Positions 16,806 to 31,141 are shown, counted from the stretch's first letter. The stretch is DNA of 31,141 bases from Oligoflexales bacterium (GCA_045106415.1 JBGCEP010000023.1:1-31141), one strand, 5' to 3'. Notes: generated by a model from the letters alone, not told the origin. A program made the numbers and translations.

Positions 16806-18764
16806 GTGGGGCAAAGCATGGGTGAAGCGGCAACAAAACTATCTGATGTCATGAATCATCTTCTTGAGGACTTAGAGGCCAGCAGTCGTTTTCAGGTGAC
16901 AGTTAACGGCTCAGTCATTGAAGTTGAAAGAGATGGACTCATTCAGATCTATGTTGACTGCCATCATATGCCGCGTTTTGCACCCAATTATCTTAAAGAA
17001 GAAAATAAAGATCGCCTCTGCGTTATTGCTGTTGGCCACCCAGACGAACTCGAAGCCCTCCCACCGCATTGTTTAAACCGATGGATTCAACAACTTCCCT
17101 ACCCGTGTGAGCGAACGAGCATAGCGTCCTTTGCTGAGAATAATCACAACCTTTTAGCCCGTTATCATGATGCCATCGAATCAACAAATGATAGCAGTTT
17201 GCATAATTCAGATGAGTTAAGACACGTTTTATCAATTTCTCGAGAACTCAACGGTGTTCGCAATATCCCCAAGCTTCTCAACCTCATTCTTAAAAAAGCA
17301 AGAGAGATTACTCAGGCCGACGCAGGGTCCATCTATACAGTCAATGCTCCTGAAAATGATTTAATGAAAGGCAAAATAGCTTTTCGATTTACACAAAACA
17401 ACTCTGTTGAATTAAGCCTCAGCCACTTTGAACTTCCAATTAATGAAAAATCTGTTGTTGGAAACGCTGTGATTCACAGACAAGCTATTAACATACAAGA
17501 TCTTTATAAACTCAGCCCTGATCCTGCTAAAAACCCCTTTCATACCGTTCATGACCGTTCATGGGATGAACGCACAGGATATGAATCTCATTCCATGCTT
17601 ACAGTCCCGATGTTTGACATTTCACACAAAGTCATTGGCGTCATTCAGCTTATCAACTCCAAAAAAATACCTCATATAAAACTTCAATCTTCACAAGATT
17701 TTATTGATTACGTCCAATCATTTTCCCCTGAAGCTGTTGAAGTTGCAAAAATGGTGGGCCAGCAAGCTGGTATTGCCCTTGAAAATGCAAAAATGCAAAC
17801 AGATATTGAAAATCTTTTCAAAAGTTTTGTAAATGCTTCTGTCACAGCAATTGAAATTCGGGATCCAACCACAAGCGGTCACTCTCACCGAGTTGCAACT
17901 CTGACAACATCACTTGCAAAAGCGTTAAACCGCATCGATAGTGGCCCTCACCAGCACACACAATTTGATGAAGATGAAATGCGTGAGATTGAGTATGCCT
18001 CTCTACTGCATGACTTCGGAAAAGTTGGAGTTCGGGAAGATGTCTTGCTCAAAGCTAAAAAGCTATACGGTTGGCAAGAAAATATGATTAAGGAACGCTT
18101 TGCACGTATTGCGTCTAGTATTGAAATTGAATACCTAAGACAAGTCATTGATTTCCGTTCACACGCTATGGCTCCTATGGGTTTTACTGATGATTATATA
18201 CGTCAGCAACGCGACGATAAATTAGAAGAACTCAACGAGTTTATGGCATTCATCATGAAGGCAAATGAGCCAACGATTCTAGAACAAGAAGGATTTGAGT
18301 TTTTAAAAGAAATTGCAAACCGCACCTTTGAGGACCTCGAAAAAAAATCTCATCCTTACCTTAAATCTGATGAATTAAGAGCTCTATCAATATCGAGAGG
18401 GTCTTTAACCGCAGAAGAGTTCGGAGAGATTCAAAGCCACGTATCCCACACCTATGAATTTTTAAGAAAAATACCGTGGGGTGAACGACTTGCAAATGTT
18501 CCTCAAATTGCTGCAAAACACCATGAAAAACTAGACGGAACAGGCTACCCTCATAGTTCTTCAGCAAATGATATCCCGATTCAATCACGGATGATGACAA
18601 TTGCTGATATTTTTGATGCTCTCACAGCAGCAGACCGGCCTTATAAAAAAGCAGCTCCAAAAGAAAAAGCTCTCGATATTTTAAATATGGAAGTCAGAGC
18701 AGGAAAGATTGACAAAGACCTCTTTAGCGTGTTTCTTGAATCAGGTGTTTATAAAATGGTTTAG
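16806..18764 (+). CDS. GAF-domain HD-GYP cyclic di-GMP phosphodiesterase
   Basis: GAF (ADAGSIY...GYESHSMLTVPM...VIGVIQLIN); RDPTTSGHSHRVA, LLHDFGK, helical insert, HHEKLDGTGYP, IADIFDALTAADRPYK. Confidence 0.92.
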   Translation: MGQSMGEAATKLSDVMNHLLEDLEASSRFQVTVNGSVIEVERDGLIQIYVDCHHMPRFAPNYLKEENKDRLCVIAVGHPDELEALPPHCLNRWIQQLPYPCERTSIASFAENNHNLLARYHDAIESTNDSSLHNSDELRHVLSISRELNGVRNIPKLLNLILKKAREITQADAGSIYTVNAPENDLMKGKIAFRFTQNNSVELSLSHFELPINEKSVVGNAVIHRQAINIQDLYKLSPDPAKNPFHTVHDRSWDERTGYESHSMLTVPMFDISHKVIGVIQLINSKKIPHIKLQSSQDFIDYVQSFSPEAVEVAKMVGQQAGIALENAKMQTDIENLFKSFVNASVTAIEIRDPTTSGHSHRVATLTTSLAKALNRIDSGPHQHTQFDEDEMREIEYASLLHDFGKVGVREDVLLKAKKLYGWQENMIKERFARIASSIEIEYLRQVIDFRSHAMAPMGFTDDYIRQQRDDKLEELNEFMAFIMKANEPTILEQEGFEFLKEIANRTFEDLEKKSHPYLKSDELRALSISRGSLTAEEFGEIQSHVSHTYEFLRKIPWGERLANVPQIAAKHHEKLDGTGYPHSSSANDIPIQSRMMTIADIFDALTAADRPYKKAAPKEKALDILNMEVRAGKIDKDLFSVFLESGVYKMV

Positions 18765-18772
18765 AGATCATC

Positions 18773-19360
18773 ATGCAAGCAAGTGAACTTTCACCACATC
18801 TTCTTTTGACCGCGTATTCGAACGGGTATTTTCCCATGCCTGAAAACGATGGTGAAATTTTATGGTACCGGCCTGATCCCCGAGCCATAATTCCTCTAGA
18901 GAAATTCCATGTTTCGAAGTCCCTCCAAAAGCATATGCGAAAACATCAAGATACAATCACAATCAACACCGCATTTCAGAGTGTCATGAAAGCTTGTGGG
19001 GACAGAGAAGAAACTTGGATACAAAATGATATAATCCGGGTCTATACTGAAATGTATCAACTCGGACACGCTCACTCTCTGGAAGTTTGGCGCAATGAAC
19101 ATCTCATTGGAGGAACCTATGGCCTTCAAATCGGAGGGGCTTTCTTTGCTGAATCAATGTTCCACTACGAAACTAACGCATCTAAAGTTGCTTTATATCA
19201 CCTAACACAAACACTTACTGCTCATCGCTTCAAACTTTTGGAATGCCAGTTCCTTACTCCACACCTTGCTTCACTTGGTGCCATAGAGGTCAGCGATGAA
19301 ACTTATATCAACGATTTGGAGAAAGCACTGCAGCATCAAGAGTACACTCCACTTTCTTAG
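18773..19360 (+). CDS. aat: Leucyl/phenylalanyl-tRNA--protein transferase
   Basis: AYSNGYFPM, WYRPDPRA, TWI, AHSLEVW, GGTYG...FFAESMF...NASKVAL, HLASLGA. Confidence 0.93.
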   Translation: MQASELSPHLLLTAYSNGYFPMPENDGEILWYRPDPRAIIPLEKFHVSKSLQKHMRKHQDTITINTAFQSVMKACGDREETWIQNDIIRVYTEMYQLGHAHSLEVWRNEHLIGGTYGLQIGGAFFAESMFHYETNASKVALYHLTQTLTAHRFKLLECQFLTPHLASLGAIEVSDETYINDLEKALQHQEYTPLS

Positions 19361-19416
19361 CAACCCAACCATAAAACCCATAAAGACTTATCATATAAGT
19401 AATATAGAAAAAAAAC

Positions 19417-19443
19417 TTTAGATTTAAGCCTCAAAACCGATAA
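19417..19443 (+). promoter_or_regulatory. Sigma28-like promoter (unit 1)
   Basis: TTTA(G)-N15-ACCGATAA. Confidence 0.55.
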
Positions 19444-19571
19444 GTTTATTAAAGCAGATCACTACCTATAGGAGCAGACGAGGTTGCACGGCTTATACGG
19501 CCAGATGCTCTTCACATGATTCTGGTATCCAGATGCAAAATATTTTTCGTTTTAATATCTTTGAAAAAAAC

Positions 19572-19599
19572 TTAAGATTTTCATCGTGAGATCCGATAA
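19572..19599 (+). promoter_or_regulatory. Sigma28-like promoter (unit 2)
   Basis: TTAA(G)-N16-TCCGATAA. Confidence 0.55.
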
Positions 19600-19843
19600 G
19601 GACATCATACGAAAACATAGCTATAAGACAGACGAGGCTGCAAAAATTTCGCTCTGATATAACTAAATCTTAGACAGATAAAAGCAAATCTTTCAAATCT
19701 TAAAACACTCTTCCCACAAAACAATTCTTACAATATTCATATAAAAACCCTAGTTTTATCTACATAAAACACTCATTGCTCGAACTCCTTAAATCTGATA
19801 TTTTTCATCACGTACACAAGACAGAATATAAAGGGTCTTCAAT

Positions 19844-20395
19844 ATGAATAAAACTTCCTTTTTAAAAACTTTAGAAAGTACTTCTTTTATTTCATTTGCT
19901 GCAGGATACTTCTGGGGTAACCTGCAAATCGCCACAATGGCTCTTATGGCGCACCTTTCTTTATTCACTCTTCTCGCGGTCATTATGCGACATTCTCTTA
20001 ATAACTTACAAAAAGGGTCATGGGTAGCGGTTATGGTTCTCGGTGGAGGAGGAGTCATGCTTCAAGATGATAATCTCATCAAATTAAAAATTACGATTAT
20101 CAATTTTGCTTTATCTTTAAGTCTTTTAGCCAGTCATTTTTATGGAAAGCTCTCTCTCATAGAAAGAGTCTTAAAAGAACACATTGCTGCGCCCACAAAT
20201 CTTCTTAGAAAAATCAACCTTGCAGCAGCGCTTTATTTTTTTCTTACAGGTTTAAGTAACCTCTGGGTCAAAAATTATCTAAGTAATGATGCCTGGGTAC
20301 AATTTAAGCTTTTCGTTCTACCTGGAACAAACATTATATTCCTCATTCTATGCCTGATCGCACTTAAAGAGTGGCTTCCTACTGATAAAAGTTAA
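19844..20395 (+). CDS. yciB: Inner-membrane septation protein A family (YciB/IspZ)
   Basis: 183-aa multi-pass membrane protein; DDNLIKLKITIIN (cf. D..FIKWKPTII) and WVQFKLF (cf. WVNFKVF). Confidence 0.78.
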   Translation: MNKTSFLKTLESTSFISFAAGYFWGNLQIATMALMAHLSLFTLLAVIMRHSLNNLQKGSWVAVMVLGGGGVMLQDDNLIKLKITIINFALSLSLLASHFYGKLSLIERVLKEHIAAPTNLLRKINLAAALYFFLTGLSNLWVKNYLSNDAWVQFKLFVLPGTNIIFLILCLIALKEWLPTDKS

Positions 20396-20427
20396 TTAAT
20401 ATTTAATGCTCAATACTCACATTCATA

Positions 20428-20628
20428 TTAATAATCAGTGAGTATTCGGTTTAATTCTTGACTAGCAAGAGATATTTTACTCAGAATATTCTGTGAAGCC
20501 TCTGTATCCATTCCCATTCCTCTATGTTTTTTCTGCTCACTTAAAAGGTCGAGTTTTAAACCTCTAATCTCTTCTTCTAAAACTGAAACTGCGATTTCAC
20601 AATTTTGCAATACAATCAAAGCAACCAT
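20428..20628 (-). CDS. Small hypothetical helical/coiled-coil protein (66 aa)
   Basis: RBS-like GAGGGA upstream, heptad-like sequence, and a near-consensus sigma28 promoter 55 bp upstream. Confidence 0.55.
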   Translation of the reverse strand: MVALIVLQNCEIAVSVLEEEIRGLKLDLLSEQKKHRGMGMDTEASQNILSKISLASQELNRILTDY

Positions 20629-20988: not shown

Positions 20989-23589
20989 ATGATACATTTA
21001 TCATCAAAACTATTTCTACCTCTTCTCTTATTGGTCTCATGTACCCCTAGAGAAAAAAACAAAACAAGCCGCCTAGAGCTGTCTGAAGAAACTCAACAAT
21101 TAGGCCTGCAGCTTACAGCAAAAGACTTTATAGCAGATGTTGTTGAAGAACTCGGTTCTGATAAAAAAGATGCCGAACTTAAAGTATCATTTGAAAAAGT
21201 TTTACGAAAACACGAAAACACGATTGGGAAAATTTTCGGTCCAAACGACAAATCATACAGCATACAAGATGTGTTAAAGGAGTTTGGCCTCAATGAGGGA
21301 GCTGCTTATCTTAAAGGGAATAAAACGGTTCAAGAAGCCTTAAATGGCGACCTTTCCATCGCTAAAATTATAAAAAACCCAAAACTTGGGATGACTCGTT
21401 TCCAACTCATAATTGCTGACTTTATCCTTGCTGTAAGAAACTTTTTTCAAAAAATAGGATTCACCTTTGCAATTGACCGCATTGATCACCGTATTTTTCA
21501 CGGCGTTGCAAAAAGAGCTCCAGAAATCCGTACAACTTTCAAAAACAAACTTGAATATATACGTAATATTGACAATCTTTCAGAAAACTTAAGTGTCAAA
21601 GAAGAAATATTTGGCATGTTTGATGCAAAACTCATTCCTGAATCCACTTTAAACACACTTGAAAAATTTAGTGTTGGCTACTTTCAATACCTTCCTGATT
21701 CTGAAAAAATCCGCATAGCTTCTTCTTTCTTACGAGCAGATCGCTTAAATGACAAATTTGACTATATGGAAATCGCTCTTAAAAACAGCGGTCCGACACT
21801 CCAAAAAGTTTTCCAATTCATAGGTGACTATATCCCAAAAGATTTAGAAAAAGAACGATCTCGACTTATTGCTGAAGGCATTTCCGAACAAGATATTGAT
21901 AAAAAAATAAAAGATGTTGAACGTCTCAGAGGTGTCATTGAACGTGTGAAATCAGACAAAATGTATCACATCGACAATACCAACCTTGAAGAGATTGTTA
22001 GACTTGCAACCTCAACAGGAAAAACCAGCTATACAGAAAAAGAAACTCGCGATGCTCTCTCATCTCAATCCGCAGATGATTTTATCCGTAAAATTAGTGA
22101 CGAACAGGCCACAAAAAACAAAGTCGATGCTTGGACCGTAAAAGAAATCAAAAGAGTTGCTCAACGTTCCGCAAACTACGATACAAAAGTTCTTATAGGG
22201 AAAGCCCTTTTAGGTACTCAAAACCAAACGTATGAAACAATTGAAGCAGACGAAGAAAGCCAGAAAAATGCTATTACAGCTTACAGTTCTGCTTTTGATG
22301 GTGACCCTATTCTTATTGGTCAAGCCTCTATTGGTCGCACAGCAGGTATTAAAACAAAAGATGGAAACAGCGCAGTTATCAAAATAAAAAGACCTGGTGC
22401 TGACAATAGCTTTAAAAATGAACTCATAGGTTTTGAGAAATCTTTTCCAGCAGCAGACACATCTGCTGAAACAGCTCGAAGATTCATGGGTAAAATCACG
22501 ACTGATGTTGAATTAGAGCTTGATTTCAAAAATGAATCAACAAACTTTCTTGTCGTTGATAAAATCTACAAAAATAAAGGATCCTCAGGAACATTTGAAG
22601 TCACAGACCTCCTCTCTTTCAACACAGAAACAAACCGTTTCGATAAAATAAATGCAGTAGATAAAATCCCAGCACAAAACTCGTCACTTATTGTTATGTC
22701 TAGAGCTTCCGGAGCTGAAATTAATACCTTTGACGGACGTGAATACACCAACTCTAAAGGCGAGACGTTTAAAGGCGCTGAAATCATCGAACTCCGAAAA
22801 CAAGCTGTATCTCAACTCTATGAAACTTGGCTTAAAGAATCTCTTTTTAAAGGCGGAGATTTTCACGCTGATCTACATTCCGGAAATATCTTCTTTGACC
22901 TTGAAAAAGACAAAGAAGGAAAGTCTAAATTCATCCTCACCCTTATTGATTACGGCGCAATGGGCAAGCTCTCTCAAGAACTCCAAGGGCATGCTAAAAT
23001 ATTTGGTCTTGGGTTAAAAAACAACGACACACGCCTTATTCTTTCTGGCCTTTTAAATATCTCTGAAGATCCCATGACAGATAAAGACCTCGATGCTCTC
23101 ACTCAAGACATAAAAACAGCTATGGACAATAAAAATCTTACCCCTATAGCTCGCCAAGAAGAAATCTTAAGAGCTGTAGGAGCCCGCAACGTACAAGTTC
23201 CTTCTGGGTTTCTTCAATTCTTTCGAGGGAGTTCTTTCCTTGAAAAAGAGCTTCAAAACATCAATGGGATCATCAGTGATGATAAAAACGGATATACAAA
23301 TGTGAAGCCTGTTAATATTGCCAACATCCACGCAAATGTTGGTGTTAGCGCAGACAGTCTTTTAAATGTTAATAATTTAAAAACACTCATCGGTCCTGCG
23401 ACAATATCAGGATTTCGATCTTTAAAAAATGCTTTCACAACAGAAAGTCCAGAAAACTTAAAAAATTCTCTACAAAAACTTCGAAACGATATCTATAAAT
23501 CTCGAATCGAAAAAGGTAAAGATAATCAAGACACACGGAACAGATTCAATCAATTTATGGAATCTCAATCAAAAAAAGCAAAACGTTAA
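20989..23589 (+). CDS. ABC1/AarF/UbiB-family atypical kinase with a lipoprotein signal peptide
   Basis: Leader MIHLSSKLFLPLLLLVS-C; motifs GPTLQKVFQ, ASIG, VIKIKRPG, ELDFKNE, FHADLHSGNI, LIDYGAMG in canonical ABC1 order. Confidence 0.85.
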   Translation: MIHLSSKLFLPLLLLVSCTPREKNKTSRLELSEETQQLGLQLTAKDFIADVVEELGSDKKDAELKVSFEKVLRKHENTIGKIFGPNDKSYSIQDVLKEFGLNEGAAYLKGNKTVQEALNGDLSIAKIIKNPKLGMTRFQLIIADFILAVRNFFQKIGFTFAIDRIDHRIFHGVAKRAPEIRTTFKNKLEYIRNIDNLSENLSVKEEIFGMFDAKLIPESTLNTLEKFSVGYFQYLPDSEKIRIASSFLRADRLNDKFDYMEIALKNSGPTLQKVFQFIGDYIPKDLEKERSRLIAEGISEQDIDKKIKDVERLRGVIERVKSDKMYHIDNTNLEEIVRLATSTGKTSYTEKETRDALSSQSADDFIRKISDEQATKNKVDAWTVKEIKRVAQRSANYDTKVLIGKALLGTQNQTYETIEADEESQKNAITAYSSAFDGDPILIGQASIGRTAGIKTKDGNSAVIKIKRPGADNSFKNELIGFEKSFPAADTSAETARRFMGKITTDVELELDFKNESTNFLVVDKIYKNKGSSGTFEVTDLLSFNTETNRFDKINAVDKIPAQNSSLIVMSRASGAEINTFDGREYTNSKGETFKGAEIIELRKQAVSQLYETWLKESLFKGGDFHADLHSGNIFFDLEKDKEGKSKFILTLIDYGAMGKLSQELQGHAKIFGLGLKNNDTRLILSGLLNISEDPMTDKDLDALTQDIKTAMDNKNLTPIARQEEILRAVGARNVQVPSGFLQFFRGSSFLEKELQNINGIISDDKNGYTNVKPVNIANIHANVGVSADSLLNVNNLKTLIGPATISGFRSLKNAFTTESPENLKNSLQKLRNDIYKSRIEKGKDNQDTRNRFNQFMESQSKKAKR

Positions 23590-30780: not shown

Positions 30781-31141
30781 ATGCCTAAGTTATACTCATT
30801 AGACCTGAAGAATAAAGTGATTGATGCGACAGAATCTGGCTATACCGATAGCTCTATCAGTGAGACTTTCAATATCGCTCGTAAAACAATATATAATTGG
30901 AAAAAGAAACTGACAGAGACTGGTTCTCTGAAACCACGGAAACGTGAACAGGGACCAGGTAAGATTCAAGACTTGGAAAAATTTAGAAAATTTGTAGAAG
31001 AAAAACCTGATAGAAGCTCCGAAGAAATGGCTCAAGATTGGGGGATATTTCTCCACGGAGTATTCGTCGATACTTGCGGCTTATCGGTTTTACAAATAAA
31101 AAAAACATTTGGATACAAAAATCGCTGCGATAAAAATCGGA
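30781..31141 (+). mobile_element. IS630-family transposase, N-terminal HTH part (runs off the window; left end probably near 30680-30720)
   Basis: ATG 30781: MPKLYSLDLKNKVID...FNIARKTIYNWKK...TGSLKP...FVEEKPD...EMAQDW. An alternate frame reads ISPRSIRRYLRLIGFTNKK, followed by an A8 run and KKTFGY. Confidence 0.88.

Follow-up and report, generated by a model that had tools for sequence, protein, structure and literature searches.

Among sibling small RNAs (sRNAs), OmrA/OmrB of Escherichia coli and PrrF1/PrrF2 of Pseudomonas are encoded next to one another in the same orientation, each RNA having its own promoter and a short conserved 5′ region in otherwise divergent sequence; these RNAs have intrinsic terminators, depend on Hfq, and are conserved across species. 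Dependence on Hfq also holds for the sigma-28-dependent sRNAs of E. coli. Here we describe a candidate pair of tandem transcription units, each with a predicted sigma-28 (FliA)-type promoter and no gene of its own, in a 31,141-bp stretch of DNA from an Oligoflexales bacterium (the window; JBGCEP010000023.1 of assembly GCA_045106415.1, contig C23 of a genome with 89 contigs, 2,949,388 bp, and 39.8% GC); the units lie in the 483-bp gap (positions 19,361-19,843) between aat and yciB, two genes on one strand. Small RNAs under the flagellar sigma factor have been reported in E. coli (sigma-28-dependent sRNAs; PMC10578931) and in Campylobacter jejuni (an FliA-dependent sRNA; PMC11187230). Three of the eight attack-phase sRNAs listed for Bdellovibrio bacteriovorus (APsRNA3, APsRNA6, and APsRNA7) have FliA promoters (Karunker et al., 2013; PMC3627812, Table 2); in the same report, the pattern TTAAG-N16-CCGATA is given for 92 of 140 experimentally mapped attack-phase promoters and is assigned to FliA.

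The two co-oriented units in the aat-yciB gap had been recognised in an initial annotation of this DNA, and their coordinates are refined here to starts that are 155/154 nt apart. All three blocks described in that annotation are found in the sequence (Table 1): an A-run followed by the -35 block (consensus CTTWAGATTT), the -10 block CCGATAAG, and a shared motif with the consensus CTATA(G/A)GA(G)CAGACGAGG(T/C)TGCA. The spacer between the -35 and -10 blocks is 11 nt long in unit 1 and 12 nt in unit 2; the motif starts, as had been noted, 22 nt (unit 1) and 21 nt (unit 2) after CCGATAA, with 21 and 20 nt of intervening sequence between the -10 block and the motif; and the GAGG of the motif follows CCGATAA at 37-40 nt in unit 1 and at 35-38 nt in unit 2. 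The earlier naming of the flanking genes as aat and yciB agrees with their Pfam matches.

The assignment of both units to predicted sigma-28/FliA promoters, which the annotation had read from the FliA consensus, is well supported by the rest of the genome. The genome encodes FliA (TIGR02479, FliA_WhiG, 282.4 bits against a cut-off of 189.6 bits; contig C67). Against a crude gene set (2406 open reading frames (ORFs), 86.7% coding), 105 of the 312 occurrences of CCGATAA (34%) are intergenic, compared with 11-16% for scrambled words (n = 7), and 68 (22%) have a co-oriented gene start no more than 300 nt downstream, compared with 3-6% for the seven scrambled words. The stricter patterns TTAAG-N16-CCGATA and TTAAG-N15-CCGATA occur at six and five sites genome-wide, and all 11 are intergenic; four control patterns gave between zero and three matches, none of them intergenic. 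Unit 2 has exactly TTAAG-N16-CCGATA, and is thus letter-for-letter identical to the B. bacteriovorus attack-phase consensus; unit 1 has TTTAG-N15-CCGATA, which keeps four of the five -35 positions. Other promoter types were also considered: a sigma-54 or extracytoplasmic function (ECF)-type promoter inside the motif was rejected for its wrong spacing (judged by eye), and for the T7/SP6-like resemblance of the motif (CTATAGG) no phage-type RNA polymerase was found in the genome, but that search also matched no control genome and is uninformative.

Promoters of this type are usually followed closely by a gene. Using a relaxed -35 box with CCGATA[AG], we collected 55 FliA-like sites; at 36 of them, the next 150 nt contain a Shine-Dalgarno (SD) sequence with an ORF of 30 aa or more (median distance 33.5 nt, range 12-110 nt). 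Both units are among the 19 sites that lack such a combination; the other 17 include several that are chance matches inside genes or have ORFs that the SD rule missed. No + strand ORF of at least 20 aa starts downstream of either promoter inside the units, in agreement with the earlier statement that they hold no meaningful ORF.

The shared motif is specific to this gap. Its 14-nt core, CAGACGAGGYTGCA, has two exact copies in the whole genome, both in the gap and both direct; four matches are found genome-wide with at most one mismatch and 39 with at most two, and the window holds three with at most two mismatches (0.21 expected; none of 100 shuffles reaches three). When the 80 nt downstream of every intergenic CCGATA[AG] site (n = 148) were scanned, only the two units exceeded 10 of the 14 core positions; the best score among the other 146 was 10/14, which shuffles reach about 2.1 times per set. 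The annotation had proposed a genome search for the motif downstream of CCGATAA, and no copy beyond the two is present at these 148 sites. On contig C30, one of the one-mismatch copies, CACACGAGGTTGCA, forms the SD region of a gene, 2 nt before its ATG; a rough estimate puts the chance expectation for such one-mismatch matches at about two in the 5.9 Mb of both strands, which is the number seen.

Between the units, the motif keeps 21 of 23 positions with one 1-nt indel, whereas no segment outside the blocks is more alike than shuffled sequence: of 2000 shuffles, 10-100% match or exceed the observed alignment score, whether the upstream flank, either spacer (-35/-10 or -10/motif), or the tails of 40 and 75 nt are compared. 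A-runs and CTTAAG/CTAAAG -35 boxes are also found at other CCGATA sites of the genome, and the A-run, -35, and -10 blocks are generic for its sigma-28-type promoters. Since these first two blocks are common to any two such promoters, only the third, the shared motif, argues for common descent or common function of the units. The block-wise conservation reported initially is confirmed (with spacers that have diverged to shuffle level), with the qualification that the likeness of the A-run, -35, and -10 elements belongs to the promoter class.

We tentatively favour, as a reading that is possible rather than probable, that the products are non-coding RNAs in which the shared 5′-proximal element is the working part. 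The two tandem FliA-type promoters, neither with a gene of its own, would fire with the bacterium's large FliA regulon, in a motile or "attack-like" programme. Transcripts would start about 7-9 nt after CCGATAAG, near 19,451 and 19,607, placing the unit 1 motif at about +15 to +38 of its predicted transcript. The first ∼40 nt of each RNA would then carry the same unstructured, purine-rich, SD-like element (GGAG...GACGAGG), which, in single-stranded form, may serve as a platform for pairing or binding: it might base-pair with anti-SD (CCUC-containing) stretches of mRNA leaders, for instance, or tie up an RNA-binding factor. The remainder of each RNA would be free to drift. The 3′ ends are likewise a matter of prediction; with no visible terminator, transcription could run partly or wholly on into yciB.

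Besides the promoter statistics and the precedent of sRNAs under FliA given above, three points speak for this proposal. The two promoters lack the SD sequence and ORF that are usual for the regulon. The retention of the predicted transcribed motif at a fixed offset, with the other segments at shuffle level, suggests selection on that motif. And yciB appears, by analogy, to be an unlikely FliA target, because its homologues in the family lack CCGATA[AT] upstream and its B. bacteriovorus homologue Bd2689 is growth-phase specific.

Several results weigh against non-coding RNAs. No terminator-like site is present in 19,361-19,843, which is weak evidence, as such sites are unenriched in 20 kb of the window (19, compared with 16.2 ± 4.5 in shuffles). 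Predicted folding energies are no different from those of dinucleotide shuffles, either for the putative RNAs or for the first 50 nt of each (z of -0.06, -0.35, +0.75, and -0.07; 200 shuffles each), and the minimum-free-energy structures of the two units have nothing in common, so that the folding models do not indicate a stable sRNA scaffold or a shared structure. Membership of the units in an Rfam family, a check the annotation had proposed, found no support: nothing was matched in the gap by a search of 18,500-20,500 with E up to 10, nor by a gathering-score search of the whole window (weak matches outside the gap are snoRNA-type chance matches, and the window has no tRNA or tmRNA). The RNA chaperones Hfq (PF17209) and ProQ (PF04352) were not found in the genome, which is 93.8% complete. 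The annotation had also proposed the motif as a seed for target recognition; duplex energies against 2389 gene-start regions lie within the range of 12 shuffled motifs (minimum -26.6, compared with -22.4 to -29.2 for the shuffled motifs), with no target enrichment above shuffles. Lastly, the arrangement of the units was found in no other genome searched (94 of the order, the species representatives, and the metagenome, viral, phage, and plasmid collections). A pair of sibling sRNAs is a plausible reading with little positive support, and would be one without the usual structure, terminator, chaperone, conservation, or targets. CsrA and FliW are encoded side by side on contig C78, and a role of the units as a CsrA sponge was considered and rejected: the motif has a single GGA in unit 1 and none in unit 2, so a CsrA site is unlikely.

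Within the non-coding reading, a more specific version would make the two RNAs motile-phase SD mimics, whose GGAG/GACGAGG would pair with CCUCG anti-SD sequences in target leaders, free the ribosome-binding site, and activate translation, giving a chaperone-independent anti-antisense circuit under FliA; we regard this as a long shot. Self-sequestering leaders of the kind it would need exist in the genome: the leader of a tyrS-like gene (C27:85417-85507, - strand) contains, within an SD-sequestering hairpin, 10 nt perfectly complementary to the unit 2 core, a similar anti-SD arrangement is found in the leader of an FliA-promoted secreted-protein gene (C16:3850-3940, - strand), and both can fold the SD sequence (CGAGG) against an upstream CCUCG. 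Individually they are among the best duplex matches; they are leads only, the scan as a whole being at the level of shuffles.

Table 1. Features of the aat-yciB gap and its flanking genes (positions in the window).
Feature	Coordinates	Strand	Remarks
aat (leucyl/phenylalanyl-tRNA-protein transferase)	18773..19360	+	PF03588, 4.7e-67; upstream flank
Unit 1 A-run (19408-19415) and -35 block CTTTAGATTT (19416-19425)	19408..19425	+	TTTAG pentamer at 19417-19421
Unit 1 -10 block CCGATAAG	19437..19444	+	
Unit 1 shared motif CTATAGGAGCAGACGAGGTTGCA	19466..19488	+	Holds one of the two exact genomic copies of the core
Unit 1 mini-frame in register with the motif	19484..19519	+	TTG, 10 more codons, TGA; MHGLYGQMLFT; probably not a gene
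Unit 2 A-run (19564-19570) and -35 block CTTAAGATTT (19571-19580)	19564..19580	+	TTAAG at 19572-19576
Unit 2 -10 block CCGATAAG	19593..19600	+	
Unit 2 shared motif CTATAAGACAGACGAGGCTGCA	19621..19642	+	
Unit 2 mini-frame in register with the motif	19638..19673	+	CTG, 10 more codons, TAG; first codon followed by QKFRSDITKS; unlikely to be a gene
AT-rich stretch from the unit 2 motif to the yciB start	19643..19843	+	Leader if transcription continues into yciB
yciB/ispA (intracellular septation protein A family)	19844..20395	+	PF04279, 1.9e-31; possible downstream cistron of both promoters

The most serious alternative, which we consider somewhat unlikely, is that the two are tandem sigma-28 promoters, P1 and P2, whose task is motile-phase transcription of yciB; the leaders would measure about 390 and 235 nt, and the motif in them would be a cis-acting element (it could bind a translational regulator, for example, be a site of processing, or serve ribosomes as a stand-by or decoy site). 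The units share the orientation of yciB, and the + strand of the gap yielded no sigma-70-like promoter; these two observations fit a leader equally well, and count against free-standing RNAs. The lack of a terminator-like site in the gap and of sRNA-like structure in the RNAs is in keeping with a leader as well, and no terminator-like site is seen after aat either. On the other side, the distances from the -10 elements to the yciB ATG (400 nt for unit 1 and 244 nt for unit 2) are long compared with the 36 gene-associated sites of the regulon, where the median is 33.5 nt and the maximum 110 nt, and the leaders would be 6-12 times the regulon median. Homologues of yciB, present in 11 of the 15 genomes of the family (32-44% identity), have neither synteny with aat nor the motif, and no co-oriented CCGATA[AT] is found within 1.5 kb upstream of them. 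In B. bacteriovorus, the homologue Bd2689 (intracellular septation protein) is growth-phase and not attack-phase specific, with 5.2 reads per kilobase per million mapped reads (RPKM) in attack phase and 64.7 in growth phase (PMC3627812, table S1), an argument by analogy with what may be only a distant relative; the aat gene of that bacterium, Bd0990, is listed in the same table as growth-phase specific too (13.2 and 97.3 RPKM). Finally, a need to transcribe yciB would by itself leave the duplication of the motif together with the promoter unexplained. The two readings are not mutually exclusive, since a non-coding RNA's working portion could be a 5′ fragment released from a transcript that reads through into yciB.

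That the motif instead acts as DNA seems improbable: in this reading it would be an operator, occupied at about +15 to +38 of both promoters by a sequence-specific DNA-binding protein that works as a repressor or a roadblock, and the two FliA promoters would gain a further level of control irrespective of what they transcribe. The fixed offset between the -10 block and the motif (21 and 20 nt), conservation at the level of sequence with no RNA structure, and the restriction of the motif to these two promoters would suit an operator; the motif is, however, neither a palindrome nor a clear direct repeat and contains no inverted repeat, a regulator with just two sites in one gap would be unusual, and none of the adjacent genes is a candidate regulator (aat, yciB, an uncharacterised 66-aa ORF, and genes for a GAF/HD protein and an ABC1-like kinase). 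The GAF/HD protein, with 652 aa and GAF and HD/HD_5 domains, is encoded directly upstream of aat (16,806-18,764, + strand), and is possibly a signalling protein of the cyclic-nucleotide or c-di-GMP phosphodiesterase type; the kinase-like protein (ABC1, 866 aa) is encoded at 20,989-23,589. Slightly less probable still is that the units are relics, namely what remains (promoter, leader, and SD) of a small gene that was duplicated and lost its coding part, the motif being the former ribosome-binding region and now functionless. The position of GAGG 35-40 nt after CCGATAA would be late but within the range of regulon start codons (12-110 nt, median 33.5 nt), and the one-mismatch copy CACACGAGGTTGCA does act as the SD region of the C30 gene; that match is within chance expectation, however, and neutral decay would not retain 21 of 23 positions amid randomised surroundings.

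The weakest alternative, that 11-codon micro-ORFs starting with TTG (19,484) and CTG (19,638) function through their peptides or their translation, was also raised in the annotation and is rejected from the sequence as very unlikely: the frames do exist, both beginning at the same position of the motif and reaching a stop after exactly 11 codons (equal length by chance is about 4%, a rough estimate, and an oddity that we do not fully dismiss), with AGGAG 9 nt upstream of the TTG in unit 1, but the peptides have no similarity (Table 1), the putative start codon, CTG in unit 2, contains the sole substituted base of the 14-nt core, unit 2 has AAGAC in place of AGGAG, and no spacer separates the conserved GAGG from the start codon.

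We searched for relatives of the locus in several collections. The species representatives contain no genome of the same genus. A search for sequencing runs with the locus listed no RNA run, only DNA contigs of one study, and these are from the same organism, with no related strain among them. In a BLAST search of the gap against 60 relatives, only promoter-like parts match (best E 4.8e-4). Matches to the 14-mer with at most one mismatch are listed in these 60 relatives; a minority of them, 29 foreign loci, was retrieved, and the 60 nt upstream contain neither CCGATA nor TCGATA in any of these. In 94 other genomes of the order, there are 13 matches to the pattern CCGATA-N15-40-ACGAGGYTGC and 11 to a control, which is chance level, and the 15 family genomes have none; a stricter pattern gives two matches in all species-representative genomes, one in a Clostridiales and one in a Mycobacterium metagenome-assembled genome, which we take as chance. 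The full motif has no match in metagenome contigs or in viral contigs; a metagenome scan based on YciB returned 76 stretches that matched a pattern, none confirmed as a relative; and BLAST searches of phages and plasmids gave no match. The element is therefore an orphan known from one genome, and the search in relatives that the annotation had proposed found nothing above chance in the 94 genomes of the order and nothing in the 15 of the family. An origin as the end of an insertion sequence (IS) or of a miniature inverted-repeat transposable element was rejected: there are only two copies, both direct, with no inverted partner and no viral, phage, or plasmid match.

Within the gap, two variants outside the shared motif were seen in the DNA contigs of run X1: a T>G change at 19,512 (depth 3.6 of 7) and an extra A behind 19,563 (depth 3.8 of 14.3), with which the A-run of unit 2 would reach the eight A's of unit 1. 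Downstream of yciB, a third exact site, TTAAG-N15-CCGATA, is on the - strand (TTAAG at 20,710-20,706, CCGATAA at 20,690-20,684), about 55 nt upstream of the 66-aa ORF (20,628-20,428, - strand; SD sequence GAGGGA). This ORF belongs to no Pfam family, and an Atlas search found only generic helical-hairpin look-alikes below the score bars; a transcript from this site, if it has no terminator, would run antisense into yciB and the gap.

Elsewhere in the genome, the genes downstream of CCGATA promoters mostly bear signal peptides or are otherwise unrelated to flagella. There are eight Flagellin_N matches, and seven of these genes (C4:63786, C44:839, C10:122732, C35:41591, C74:1237, C10:24518, and C78:11783) have no CGATA[AT] in the 260 nt upstream, while the eighth, C35:42501, has only TTCGATAA upstream; two Flagellin_N genes have CATATATGT in common, about 50 nt before the start. 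Classical sigma-28 targets may use another signal here, with the CCGATA promoters serving mostly genes unrelated to flagella. Some CCGATA sites are in repeats: a four-copy repeat with CCGATAAGGAATATGGAGGAACTGTCAGATG (C5:14806, C13:14561, C36:514, and C82:501, two of the copies at contig ends) resembles the start of a mobile-element gene with an FliA-like -10, and the last ∼300 bp of the window (30,845-31,141) hold two repeat families, each with CCGATA (around 30,845 on the + strand and around 31,087 on the - strand), which recur near the ends of contigs C8, C12, C25, C31, and C49, as an assembly-breaking IS-like repeat would. At C88:10427 (+ strand), an FliA-like site with no ORF (CTCAAG...CCGATAA) is directly followed by a GC-rich hairpin (CCCCTAG...CTAGGGG) and a T-run, and may mark a very short transcript or the terminator of an upstream gene.

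Taken together, the locus is a credible but orphan pair of predicted ORF-less sigma-28-type transcription units; the kind of element is already known, whereas this example of it is new and restricted to a single genome. Transcription as predicted would add a lineage-specific pair of non-coding RNAs to the FliA regulon, which appears to have expanded far beyond flagella, as in Bdellovibrio. If the proposal holds, the units would also provide a compact test case of how selection preserves a short 5′ element in an RNA that otherwise drifts, in an organism where neither Hfq nor ProQ was found. At present they are a well-defined annotation candidate rather than a discovery.

The units resemble OmrA/OmrB and PrrF1/PrrF2 in their tandem layout, their common short 5′ element, and their divergence elsewhere, and differ from them in that no terminator, Hfq, or homologue in other genomes was found. 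Similar to the tandem P1/P2 promoters of one gene, they place the same sigma class in series before yciB with nothing recognisable to stop transcription; unlike plain P1/P2 promoters, they have the initial transcribed motif duplicated with the promoter, and would give leaders 6-12 times the regulon median. With the sRNAs of E. coli and C. jejuni, they have in common that small RNAs are, or in the case of the units are predicted to be, under the flagellar sigma factor (PMC10578931; PMC11187230), although the E. coli sRNAs are described as derived from untranslated regions (PMC10578931), unlike the units. The attack-phase sRNAs of B. bacteriovorus HD100 were detected by RNA-seq and by mapping of transcription start sites, and most are described as having strong potential for secondary structure (PMC3627812), whereas the units are known from sequence only and show no fold signal; a tandem pair with a common motif is a feature of the units, and is not mentioned for the HD100 sRNAs in the parts of that paper used here. 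The base composition is not HD100-like either (39.8% GC in the source genome, compared with 0.43-0.54 for most HD100 genes). The HD100 sRNAs and the units are alike in being ORF-less and in having the TTAAG-N16-CCGATA type of promoter, and in HD100 this promoter type controls far more than flagellar genes, as it appears to do in the source genome.

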